35,190 nt of DNA from a virus (Duplodnaviria; Heunggongvirae; Uroviricota; Caudoviricetes): positions 82,413-117,602 of IMG/VR virus record IMGVR_UViG_3300034102_002786, one strand, 5' to 3'. The notes beneath the pieces are model-generated. The model was not told the origin of the DNA. It made no database searches and saw nothing but the letters and a program-made list of their open reading frames with translations. The translations under genes and the position numbers were made by a program. Shown piece after piece: positions 2,625-28,558 of the stretch; positions within the stretch are counted from its first letter, which is position 1, and every line of letters begins with the position of its first letter.

Positions 2625-3206
2625 ATGGGAGTAGATATATACGGCAGAAAGCCAATAGTAAAATCGGAAAGACCTGACCAAATAGATTATCAGGCTTCAA
2701 CCGATGACCAAAAACAAAAGTATTGGAATAAAGTAGATGAATGGGAAGAAGAAAATCCTGGCGTTTACTTTCGTTCTAATTGGTGGGGTTGGAGACCTAT
2801 TTGTATGTTATGTGAAATAGCAAACGATAAGTACAAACTCAAAATGAATATGGACCATTGGGGTTCAAATGATGGTAAAGGGCTTCGTACACAAAAGCAA
2901 TGTGATAAGTTAGCAGATGCATTGGAATTGATGTTGACTAATGATAGTGGTTACAATGAGTTTATGGCCGAAGATGATGACCGTATTCAGATAGTGATGG
3001 GTAGCTGGGTAAAGAGTGGTACAGGTCAATTCTATTCGGATGAGAACTTAGAATTGCAACAACAATATGAATATGGTACTATCCTTTACAACCCTATTGT
3101 TACAAAGAAAGGTGAGTTGGTTGAATCAGCTCATAGTTGTTCATTAGCACATATCAAGCGTTGGATTAATTTCCTTAGAGCTTGTGGTGGATTTAAAATT
3201 TGGTAA
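2625..3206 (+). CDS. conserved phage protein, MGVDIY/YFRxNWWxWRP family
   Basis: Motifs MGVDIYG, YFRSNWWGWRP, FLRACGGFKIW. Confidence 0.8.
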   Translation: MGVDIYGRKPIVKSERPDQIDYQASTDDQKQKYWNKVDEWEEENPGVYFRSNWWGWRPICMLCEIANDKYKLKMNMDHWGSNDGKGLRTQKQCDKLADALELMLTNDSGYNEFMAEDDDRIQIVMGSWVKSGTGQFYSDENLELQQQYEYGTILYNPIVTKKGELVESAHSCSLAHIKRWINFLRACGGFKIW

Positions 3207-3209
3207 GTT

Positions 3210-3617
3210 ATGGCAAAATTATTTGAAAGTGAATTTCACAAAGGAGTTATGGTAGCTGTGATTGAAGCCGGAGATTATCAGTATCAGGTCTTAGCACCAC
3301 TATTTAATGATTATGGATATGGATTTGTAGCGCCTGACCAAAAGTTGATATTCATTGATGGTAATCAACATAAATCAATATACAAAATCGTAGAGGCTCA
3401 CGAAGTAGCACATATCATTCTCAATCATACAGGTATTAAAGGACCAAACGATGAAGTTGAAGCAGATAGTTTGGCTATGGTATTGTTGAGAAAATATGGA
3501 TACTATGATGAAGCTAACATACTAATTCGTGAATTTAAAAAGAGACATGGTTATTCATATAACCACATTAAAAATAAACAAAATAAACTTAAAGCACATG
3601 CCTACACAAACTTTTGA
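3210..3617 (+). CDS. HExxH metallopeptidase-like protein (ImmA/IrrE-like)
   Basis: AHEVAHIIL followed by EVEADSLA. Confidence 0.7.
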   Translation: MAKLFESEFHKGVMVAVIEAGDYQYQVLAPLFNDYGYGFVAPDQKLIFIDGNQHKSIYKIVEAHEVAHIILNHTGIKGPNDEVEADSLAMVLLRKYGYYDEANILIREFKKRHGYSYNHIKNKQNKLKAHAYTNF

Positions 3618-25651: not shown

Positions 25652-25683
25652 CTTGGAATTCTCAAGTATTTTCCGTAACTTTA
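25652..25683 (+). promoter_or_regulatory. possible promoter with no adjacent ORF
   Basis: CTTG 25652-55, 20 bp, TAACTTTA 25676-83. Confidence 0.55.
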
Positions 25684-25722
25684 GGGAGTGGAGGGCGGGG
25701 TAAGCCCCATTAGGGACCGGCA

Positions 25723-25895
25723 GGCTAACCTGTTGGTTTTCAATCGCTTATGGAATGTTATATAACGTATATTATGTTAAGTCACCAACACGCTGATTAT
25801 CAATCGGTTAGCTCGAAAAAAGGGGTGTTTTTCTTATATAATATATTATGTTAAATAGGACACCCGAGGCGGGGCGCAACGTGTTGATAACCAAT
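25723..25895. repeat. motif cluster 3: three degenerate copies
   Basis: GGCTAACCTGTTGGTTTTCAAT (25723-44), inverted GCTGATTATCAATCGGTTAGC (25792-812), GCAACGTGTTGATAACCAAT (25876-95). Confidence 0.8.
25755..25782. other. dif-like Xer recombination site
   Basis: ATGTTATATAA-CGTATA-TTATGTTAAGT: 11-6-11 layout, right arm 10/11 and spacer 5/6 identical to E. coli dif. Confidence 0.7.
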
Positions 25896-25931
25896 GGTTT
25901 ATACTTTTTTAAAAAATAATTGTAAAAAGTC

Positions 25932-25984: not shown

Positions 25985-26197
25985 ATGAGTTCCGTATTAA
26001 ACGTTAAGTTCGAATCAGAAGCCCAAATTAAGGCCATTACCAAAATGTTAAGTTCTATTTTCGGATGTCAGGTCCGCCCACGTGGTAGACATAGTAACCG
26101 AAAAGCTGTATTGGGTTACCGTTGGATGAGAGGTACTCAAAACGATATTCCGTGGAGAATGGCGGAGCGTGTTTCATTTTATACTATTTCTAAATAA
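25985..26197 (+). CDS. hypothetical basic protein
   Basis: ORF track; first gene after promoter. Confidence 0.75.
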   Translation: MSSVLNVKFESEAQIKAITKMLSSIFGCQVRPRGRHSNRKAVLGYRWMRGTQNDIPWRMAERVSFYTISK

Positions 26198-26445: not shown

Positions 26446-26745
26446 ATGAGAAAAATAACTAAAGAGTCTGTCCAAGCTTTTATCGAAGGACGTAAGTTTA
26501 ACAAAGGTAACATGAGTGTTGAAGTTGATTTAGGATACACTAAGTTAAAGTTGCATGGTAACACGATCGCCACTATTGATGCGCTGGGTGTTATGAGTGT
26601 ATCAAACGCAGGATGGGCTAGTAACACTACAAAAGAACGTTTGAATGGACTACCCAATGTACGAATCAATCAAAAGAATTGGAATTGGTATTTGAATGGT
26701 AATGAGTGGGATGGTACTTGGAGACGTATTGGATTTGTAAAATAA
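26446..26745 (+). CDS. conserved phage protein (LHGNxIA...GWxSxTTKERLN family)
   Basis: Motif pattern recalled from phage hypotheticals. Confidence 0.8.
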   Translation: MRKITKESVQAFIEGRKFNKGNMSVEVDLGYTKLKLHGNTIATIDALGVMSVSNAGWASNTTKERLNGLPNVRINQKNWNWYLNGNEWDGTWRRIGFVK

Positions 26746-27983: not shown

Positions 27984-28165
27984 GCTAACTAACACGTTAG
28001 CAAATATCGTATGTAAAAAACAGCAATGTAATTCCGTTTCTTTCACGTTATCCCTTATTTTACCGGTCCCGTCTTCTTAGGGCCCTATATTGAAAATAGT
28101 CACAAATTGTACTCGAGCTAACTAGTTGATTATCAATAGGCCGGGCTAACGTGTTGATTATCAAT
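27984..28165. repeat. motif cluster 4: palindromic half-site pair plus two direct copies
   Basis: GCTAAC-TAACAC-GTTAGC (27984-28001); GCTAACTAGTTGATTATCAAT (28117-37); GCTAACGTGTTGATTATCAAT (28145-65). Confidence 0.9.
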
Positions 28166-28195
28166 AAAGAATTTTTAAAGATTTCGTGGAAAATA

Positions 28196-28240: not shown

Positions 28241-28558
28241 ATGATAAATATGTATAACGAAAACCCCTTCAGACAGTTCTCCGCTAGTAAAATGAGTAAT
28301 AACCCCCGTTTCAACGTATCGGTTGAATATACGGACTTTATGGGTAATACTCACCGTATCCAATGTAAGACACGTAAAGCCCTTAATTCGGCTCGTGAGT
28401 TCCTTAGTATCTTTAAAGCTGAATCTACAGCGATTAATAAGATATTGGGTGAATACCCCGTTAAGATGGGTAAGTTCCCTAAGAAGTTCCACTCGGAAAT
28501 TAAGAGTGACCTTCAGGCCGCTGGTTTCGGTACTATTTCTAAATACCTTTTAAAATAA
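28241..28558 (+). CDS. hypothetical protein
   Basis: ORF track; start 28241 or 28250. Confidence 0.8.
   Translation: MINMYNENPFRQFSASKMSNNPRFNVSVEYTDFMGNTHRIQCKTRKALNSAREFLSIFKAESTAINKILGEYPVKMGKFPKKFHSEIKSDLQAAGFGTISKYLLK

Follow-up and report, generated by a model that had tools for sequence, protein, structure and literature searches.

The question raised by this locus is whether a large tailed phage of Bacteroidota carries a copy of its host's dif site and, if so, what the phage would use it for. The window analysed here, a stretch of 35,190 nucleotides, makes up the final 35 kb of an IMG/VR virus record of 117.6 kb with a CheckV completeness of 53%. A sequence-only reading of the window had pointed to a near-canonical dif-like site flanked by facing copies of a GCTAAC motif, and had proposed that the phage uses Xer recombinases of the host or of its own for multimer resolution or integration.

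Two dif-like sites in an early-region gap

The proposed site, ATGTTATATAA-CGTATA-TTATGTTAAGT, is present letter for letter at 25755-82 on the + strand, where ATGTTATATAA is the XerC arm, CGTATA the centre and TTATGTTAAGT the XerD arm. A search of the 117.6-kb record for further sites returned a second complete 11-6-11 site at 25829-56 (+ strand; XerC arm TTTTCTTATAT, centre AATATA, XerD arm TTATGTTAAAT) and no others. Both scored 23.0 bits against the host-derived matrix described below. The two complete 28-bp sites, hereafter site 1 and site 2, are directly repeated with a spacing of 74 bp, and the 46 bp that separate them are non-coding.

The pair sits within the 354 bp that separate two early-type genes and has a promoter on either side. 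Promoter P1 (25632-25683, + strand) is of the Bacteroidota type, with a −33 element TTGG at 25653-56 and a −7 element TAACTTTA at 25676-83; it is directed at the dif-like sites and is one of the three copies of promoter repeat family D9. The G-rich block GGGAGTGGAGGGCGGGGTA (25684-25702, + strand) lies at the predicted transcript start and occurs once in the 117.6-kb record and in three variant copies in the related contig L020. From the −7 element through this block, every column was identical in an alignment of the window with the related contigs L329, L022 and L026, the mean identity of the alignment being 71%. Promoter P2 (25911-25962, + strand; −33 TTTG at 25932-35; −7 TATCTTTA at 25955-62) serves the next gene (25985-26197) and belongs to repeat families D1 and D9.

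The gap also holds three copies of the GCTAAC motif. The two facing copies reported earlier were confirmed at their positions, namely GGCTAACCTGTTGGTTTTCAAT at 25723-44 and GCTGATTATCAATCGGTTAGC at 25792-812. The first is a degenerate copy of GCTAAC-N3-TTGATNATCAA to the left of site 1 (25724-25744, + strand), and the second corresponds to the palindromic, IHF-like motif CTGATTATCAATCGGTTAGC (25793-25812, − strand), whose start is 10 bp past site 1. The third copy, GCAAC-GTG-TTGATAACCAA-TGGTTTAT (25876-25902, + strand), lies 27 bp past site 2 and is conserved in the alignment.

A separate observation concerns the block of ~31 nt that spans the −7 element and the G-rich start (TTCGTAACTTTAGGGAGTGGAGGGCGGGGTA, window 25670-25702) and is invariant in four phages of ~70% identity. 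Variants of it were found in L020 at 1960-2010, 2150-2200 and 3165-3210, two of them with no dif-like site downstream. The block may mark a class of small transcription units, or it may be a G-rich R-loop/G4 element.

The sites copy the dif of the host phylum

Host sites for comparison were collected by scanning one genome per prokaryote species with the pattern ATAA-N3-ATATTATGTTAART. At least 120 bacterial genomes matched, with one site each, and in Proteobacteria the scan recovered the classic dif. Among the matches listed, 52 Bacteroidota genomes gave the consensus WTGTCYTATAA-TTWATA-TTATGTTAART, in which seven left positions were left unconstrained by the pattern. A dif site was previously predicted in 19 of 19 Bacteroidetes genomes by Kono et al. 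(PMC3025954). On a complete Bacteroidia chromosome, the lone predicted dif was located at a polarity flip of the word GGGTAGGG (25 on the + and 7 on the − strand before it, 18 and 40 after it), which is what a terminus site should show, although the flip could simply follow GC skew.

The likeness to host dif extends to the level of the order. In the order of Fulvivirga and of the host-type genome G006, 42 of 61 genomes matched, usually once each, and the modal site was TGTTATATAA-TTTATA-TTATGTTAA. The XerC arm of site 1 equals the modal XerC arm (A)TGTTATATAA of this order, and is thus of the Cytophagales type; the same arm is found in Fulvivirga L075. Site 1 differs from the host dif at two central positions and at one base of the XerD arm, which reads AAGT compared to AAAT in Fulvivirga L075. 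When scored against TTATGTTAAAT, the XerD arm of site 2 (25846-56) is exact and that of site 1 (25772-82) matches at 10 of 11 positions, the host sites reading TTATGTTAART, and the XerC arm of site 2 is near the bottom of the range spanned by the host arms. The comparison with the Bacteroidota dif that had been suggested for this locus thus shows both sites to be mimics of the dif of the host phylum.

A weight matrix was built from the 52 Bacteroidota chromosomal dif sites and used with a threshold of 12 bits. Sites 1 and 2 were its sole matches in the 117.6-kb record, at 23 bits each, and five shuffles gave between 0 and 1 match. In the 274-kb genome G001, a relative of this phage, there was no match outside its own pair. 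The left arms, which had not been used in finding the sites, were also significant when compared to all 11-mers of the genome (p=3e-4 for site 1 and 1.6e-3 for site 2). The XerD arm alone, with at most one mismatch, gave five matches against 7.9 expected, and by itself is not significant.

The tandem pair is conserved in related phages

The sequence-only reading had named a lack of conservation in relatives as one of the results that would speak against it. Both sites and their spacing turned out to be conserved: the tandem pair was found in 11 related phage loci from three clades, with a spacing of 74, 64 or 75 bp. The metagenome contig L329 (~74-85% nucleotide identity) has kept both sites and the 74-bp spacing while the flanks have diverged, and in its site 1 the XerC arm and centre are identical to those in the window and the XerD arm reads AAAT. 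L022 and L026, with ~70% amino-acid identity in a neighbouring gene, also have two sites 74 bp apart, and these pairs are the only exact matches to ATATTATGTTAAGT in their records, including the 274-kb G001. Pairs with 64-bp spacing were found in L221, L223, L224 and L325, pairs with 75-bp spacing in L258, L286 and L322, and L057 has a pair at 38 bp. A single syntenic site was found in L020, L032 and L035 and in ~20 short contigs that belong to this family of phages. The idea of a small IMEX inserted in such single-site relatives (L035 type) was rejected, as the short contigs are syntenic fragments of the same phage family.

The 6-bp centre between the arms is kept in all related phage sites. 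The XerD arm is nearly invariant across the loci and the XerC arms vary widely, with weak XerC arms in the first site of L022 and of L026 and in one site of L057. Given these weak arms, some of the phage sites may bind XerD only.

The module is not tied to one place in the genome. About 30 of 45 loci with a homologue of ORF-26446 have no dif-like site within 4 kb, and in clades 2 and 3 the module lies directly upstream of the homologue of window ORF 28241-28558, with no P1-type promoter or G-rich block ahead of the pair. Across all clades, no gene was found to adjoin the module consistently. The many relatives without a site and the use of another gap in clades 2 and 3 show that the module is accessory and mobile among the gaps of the early region.

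Other word patterns were noted in the relatives. Exact copies of TTATCCACA, the DnaA-box consensus, occur four times in L020 (1655-3271), five times within 240 bp in L023 (1881-2124) and at L022:3106, often just ahead of a −33 element, and are absent from the window gap. A replication origin at this locus was considered and finds little favour, as an exact DnaA box is missing from the window gap and the promoter and G-rich block are missing from clades 2 and 3. In the single-site clade (L035:2690-2790; L226, L240, L252, L248, L267 and others), GGGTAGGG stands upstream and one to three copies of CCCTACCC stand downstream of the site. These converging words fit the E. coli KOPS consensus GGGNAGGG, but a T-run follows, so that a terminator stem is equally possible. 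No converging KOPS-like words flank the sites in the window.

An IHF-like motif stands at a fixed distance from the first site

The GCTAAC motifs had been proposed as accessory sites, and the copy next to site 1 behaves as one would. In every one of the 11 tandem loci (64-75 bp spacing) from the three clades, its TTGATNATCAA core starts exactly at +10 from the first site's XerD arm, and most of these loci have a match to the IHF consensus WATCAANNNNTTR at +15. In the window, TATCAATCGGTTA at 25797-809 matches WATCAANNNNTTR with 0 mismatches, this being the E. coli consensus, and the protein that reads the motif in Bacteroidota may differ. Among the first units of the 11 tandem loci, the match to WATCAANNNNTTR has 0 mismatches in seven and one mismatch in three, and L325 has none within one mismatch. 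Past the second site, the offset of the motif varies from +13 to +30, and no clear copy was seen in L258 or L325. At 64, 74 and 75 bp, the distances between the paired sites come near to whole numbers of helical turns (about 7; 6 in one clade).

No such motif was found beside the 52 host chromosomal dif sites, and the coupling is therefore specific to the phages. The GCTAAC-N3-TTGATNATCAA family has 11 copies in the record compared to 0 for a reversed control. It is also found ahead of many promoters that have no dif nearby, and thus part of its presence at this locus could be generic. A further arrangement was seen at window 28114-28166, where two direct copies of GCTAAC-N3-TTGATTATCAA, 28 bp apart, stand ahead of the promoter of ORF 28241-28558. 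A gene of the HU/IHF family was not found in the phage or in the colinear G001, and one was found in the host-type genome G006.

The phage is of the T4 type and has no recombinase gene of its own that we could find

Genome G001 (274 kb, complete according to CheckV) is colinear with the record that contains the window, with 62% of the record aligned at 78% identity. Its capsid gene is of the T4 gp23 type (E=8e-75), nearly all of its genes share one strand and it shows a monotone GC skew. The record itself encodes PolB, a ligase and many glycosyltransferases, and ORF 26446-26745 belongs to Kyano_Gp96, a family of T4-like cyanophages. This was the only family returned when the neighbouring ORFs were scanned with Pfam and PHROG; nothing Xer-related was found among them.

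The tyrosine recombinase domain PF00589 had no match in G000 or G001. No xer gene and no integrase gene turned up in the phage, so that Xer activity, if there is any, must be supplied by the host; the earlier reading had allowed for enzymes of either the host or the phage. XafT (PF12375, DUF3653), the Xer activation factor of TLCphi-type IMEX, had no match in G000-G003 at E<=1. A search of 401 Bacteroidota genomes, which are a sample and no proof of absence, did not return the gp23-type capsid gene, and all contigs that carry the sites show phage context on both sides. Nothing in these results points to lysogeny.

A BLAST search with the 4 kb around the site gave no match among cultured phages. 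Matches of a 35-nt query to ~20 Phocaeicola phages were rejected as AT-rich terminator palindromes, which score 8.8 bits and are not dif. A 10-kb stretch of G001 (G001:C1:210001-220000, L208) was noted in which no ORF of at least 120 aa starts on either strand; it could be an array of RNA genes or a region of small genes.

The centres of the sites and a proposed mechanism

The central regions set the phage sites apart both from host dif and from each other. At position 12, in the centre, all 52 Bacteroidota dif sites and nearly every site from the order of G006 have T, but the tandem-clade phages have C or A. These phage sites keep the XerD-side ATA of host dif and differ at positions 12-13, on the XerC side. 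Within each phage, the centres of the two sites always differ. Homology in the central region is needed for Xer strand exchange. The differing centres should therefore block deletion between the two sites, and the departure from host dif on the XerC side should disfavour an XerC-first exchange or a stable cointegrate with the chromosome, while recombination should still be allowed between identical sites on sister phage genomes.

These features suggest the following model. Host XerC and XerD would bind each 11-6-11 site, and a host DNA bender, either of the IHF/HU type or another protein that reads the motif, would bind beside the XerD arm and shape the complex, in its logic like the accessory sequences of cer and psi. 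The complex would act on copies of the phage DNA, giving crossover or monomerisation of replication intermediates, and would not serve as an attP for lysogeny. Docking of host XerC and XerD at the sites is likely. Recombination between phage DNA copies that depends on host XerCD, follows the cer/psi logic and uses the IHF-like accessory site is the reading that we favour over the others, though we would sooner expect it to be wrong than right. The full proposal, in which virulent T4-type jumbo phages of Bacteroidota carry a dedicated tandem dif module that engages host XerC/XerD and an IHF-type bender for crossover or monomerisation during the lytic cycle, or for a roadblock or unloading function, is put forward tentatively. 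The main difficulty for the favoured reading lies in replication, which in T4-type phages is understood to proceed through linear branched concatemers, so that a need for Xer resolution is not obvious. Excision of circles could also hamper headful packaging.

Alternative explanations

The explanation closest to this model is binding without recombination, where the tandem sites dock XerCD and the bender as a fixed nucleoprotein structure. Possible roles include an insulator or roadblock separating early transcription units, an upstream element for P2, a signal at which FtsK-type translocases stop, the unloading of SMC-type complexes, or a sink that titrates Xer. The XDS sites of B. subtilis, where unloading of SMC-type complexes depends on XerD, provide a precedent for one of these roles. 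A nearly invariant XerD arm next to widely variable XerC arms fits such a structure, as do centres that match neither one another nor host dif. The in-phase spacing and the rigid +10 offset suggest architecture, and the locus has an early-type promoter on either side, the motif standing ~80 bp ahead of P2. However, the sites keep the full 11-6-11 layout, the exact 6-bp centre and significant XerC arms, all of which would be needless for pure XerD docking. The pairs of clades 2 and 3 also have no P1-type promoter ahead of them, and we know of no case in which XerCD acts as a transcription factor. Binding without recombination ranks second among the readings but is rather doubtful.

A second explanation is that the sites are an IMEX-type attP for insertion at host dif, or that the phage persists as an episomal circle and relies on FtsK-XerCD to resolve its dimers when the cell divides. 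Mimics of host dif in a genome where no integrase was found are the defining pattern of IMEX, including those of Bacteroidetes microviruses (PMC3091885), and the ATA half of the centre is that of host dif. Such a life cycle would also suit the KOPS-like GGGTAGGG/CCCTACCC words that converge on the site in the related single-site clade and the clusters of DnaA-box-like TTATCCACA near the locus in L020 and L023. Against it stand the T4 gp23-type capsid, for which the search of the 401 Bacteroidota genomes returned no homologue, the phage DNA on both sides of the sites in all related contigs, the C or A at centre position 12 of the tandem clades and the lack of any match to XafT. In addition, the sole metagenome contig with site 1 is colinear phage DNA. 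Integration, the alternative that the sequence-only reading had offered beside multimer resolution, is thus not supported for a T4-type phage whose capsid gene had no homologue among those 401 genomes and whose site centres depart on the XerC side from that of host dif. An IMEX or episomal life cycle is unlikely.

It is less probable still that another protein, encoded by the phage or by the host, reads the sites and that their likeness to dif is convergent or was inherited without Xer. Most of the small neighbouring ORFs match no known family, and the module travels with the early-gene region. In contrast, the phage sites copy the host site in both arms, in the 6-bp centre and even in the XerC arm TGTTATATAA, which is specific to the host order, and no gene stands beside the module in all clades.

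A structured non-coding RNA transcribed from P1, with the AU-rich 28-mers in hairpin loops, is a very improbable reading. It would make use of P1 and the invariant G-rich start directly upstream, of the inverted repeats that bracket both sites in the window and of a T-run at 25905-10. The second XerD arm had been described as lying in the loop of a stem, and the stem is indeed present (GGGGTGT at 25822-28 and ACACCC at 25860-65). However, this and the other bracketing stem are not conserved in L329, L022 and L026. The fold z-score was about −1.3 on each strand, no Rfam family matched at its gathering score or at E<=1, no tRNAs were found, and the P1 block is missing from clades 2 and 3. The conservation follows the layout of a dif protein site and not base pairs.

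Finally, a chance resemblance in AT-rich intergenic DNA, for which one could cite the estimate of one XerD-arm 11-mer per ~235 kb at this composition and the lack of enrichment of XerD-arm matches at up to one mismatch, can be set aside because the only two 23-bit sites in the 117.6 kb form this pair, with none in the rest of the 274-kb G001, because shuffles gave 0-1 matches and the left arms are significant, and in view of the cross-clade conservation at fixed spacing.

Comparison with known systems

Hijacking of Xer is textbook knowledge for plasmids (cer, psi) and for the small integrating ssDNA phages known as IMEX. For large virulent tailed phages it has, to our knowledge, yet to be established, and a search of the full-text literature returned no paper that describes dif/XerCD sites in T4-type or jumbo phages; if the model is true, it would be a use of Xer by tailed lytic phages of which no description was found. 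The distinctive features here are the phased tandem pair and its locked partner motif at +10, in a lineage of T4-type Bacteroidota phages. The module is conserved across several clades, is tied to an identifiable host order and has a measurable architecture. If XerCD does act at these sites, enzymes of host chromosome maintenance would have a part in lytic infection by abundant freshwater T4-type phages, and the mimicry of dif, with its order-specific XerC arm, would be a usable signal for predicting the hosts of uncultured phages.

The nearest functional parallels are cer of ColE1 and psi of pSC101, which use host XerCD together with adjacent accessory DNA bound by architectural proteins of the host. 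As in these plasmids, a dif-like core is present on a non-chromosomal replicon, and searches of the phage yielded no recombinase gene. The accessory DNA of cer and psi is ~180 bp long, flanks the XerC arm and is bound by PepA together with ArgR or ArcA, whereas the phage has a 20-bp IHF-like motif on the XerD side, two cores and a T4-type phage as the replicon.

IMEX are small ssDNA phages integrated at dif, and in CTXphi inverted sites fold in the single-stranded DNA. The sites of the present phage, in which no integrase was found, resemble the dif of the host as do those of CTXphi, VGJphi and TLCphi and of the proviruses BMV1-7, and some IMEX carry two sites. The BMV1-7 proviruses of Bacteroidetes microviruses are of this type (PMC3091885). 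In contrast, the sites described here are direct repeats in a ~270-kb phage with a T4-type capsid, for which no integrated copies and no XafT were found. A separate family of IMG/VR contigs (L225, L283 and L323) was seen to carry TAATCTTATAA-TAAATA-TTATGTTAAAT at or near a contig end; its members appear to be small IMEX or circular elements of Bacteroidota with no relation to this phage.

A match to the IHF consensus at a fixed distance from the core site of a tyrosine recombinase is also found at the H sites of lambda attP, and I1 of cosB is a further point of comparison. The phage motif differs from these IHF sites in being part of a longer palindrome, GCTAAC-N3-TTGATNATCAA, that is also found ahead of many promoters, and WATCAANNNNTTR is the E. 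coli consensus. In the pdif modules of Acinetobacter plasmids, inverted XerC/D and XerD/C sites flank a gene module, whereas the phage sites are direct and the DNA between them is non-coding. In the Cytophagales genome of Dyadobacter endophyticus (G008), the small contigs C3, C4 and C9 have four extra dif-like sites with varied centres besides the chromosomal dif, and these may be plasmid Xer sites or pdif-like modules.

Compared to the chromosomal dif of Bacteroidota, the phage pair has the 11-6-11 layout, the XerC arm of site 1, the exact XerD arm of site 2 and the ATA half of the centre in common with it. The chromosomal dif is single and located at the terminus, whereas the phage locus coincides with no switch in replication skew, the GC skew being monotone in the window as in G001. 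The phage sites are arranged in tandem, have CGT or AAT instead of TTT on the XerC side of the centre and, unlike host dif, are accompanied by an IHF-like motif at +10.
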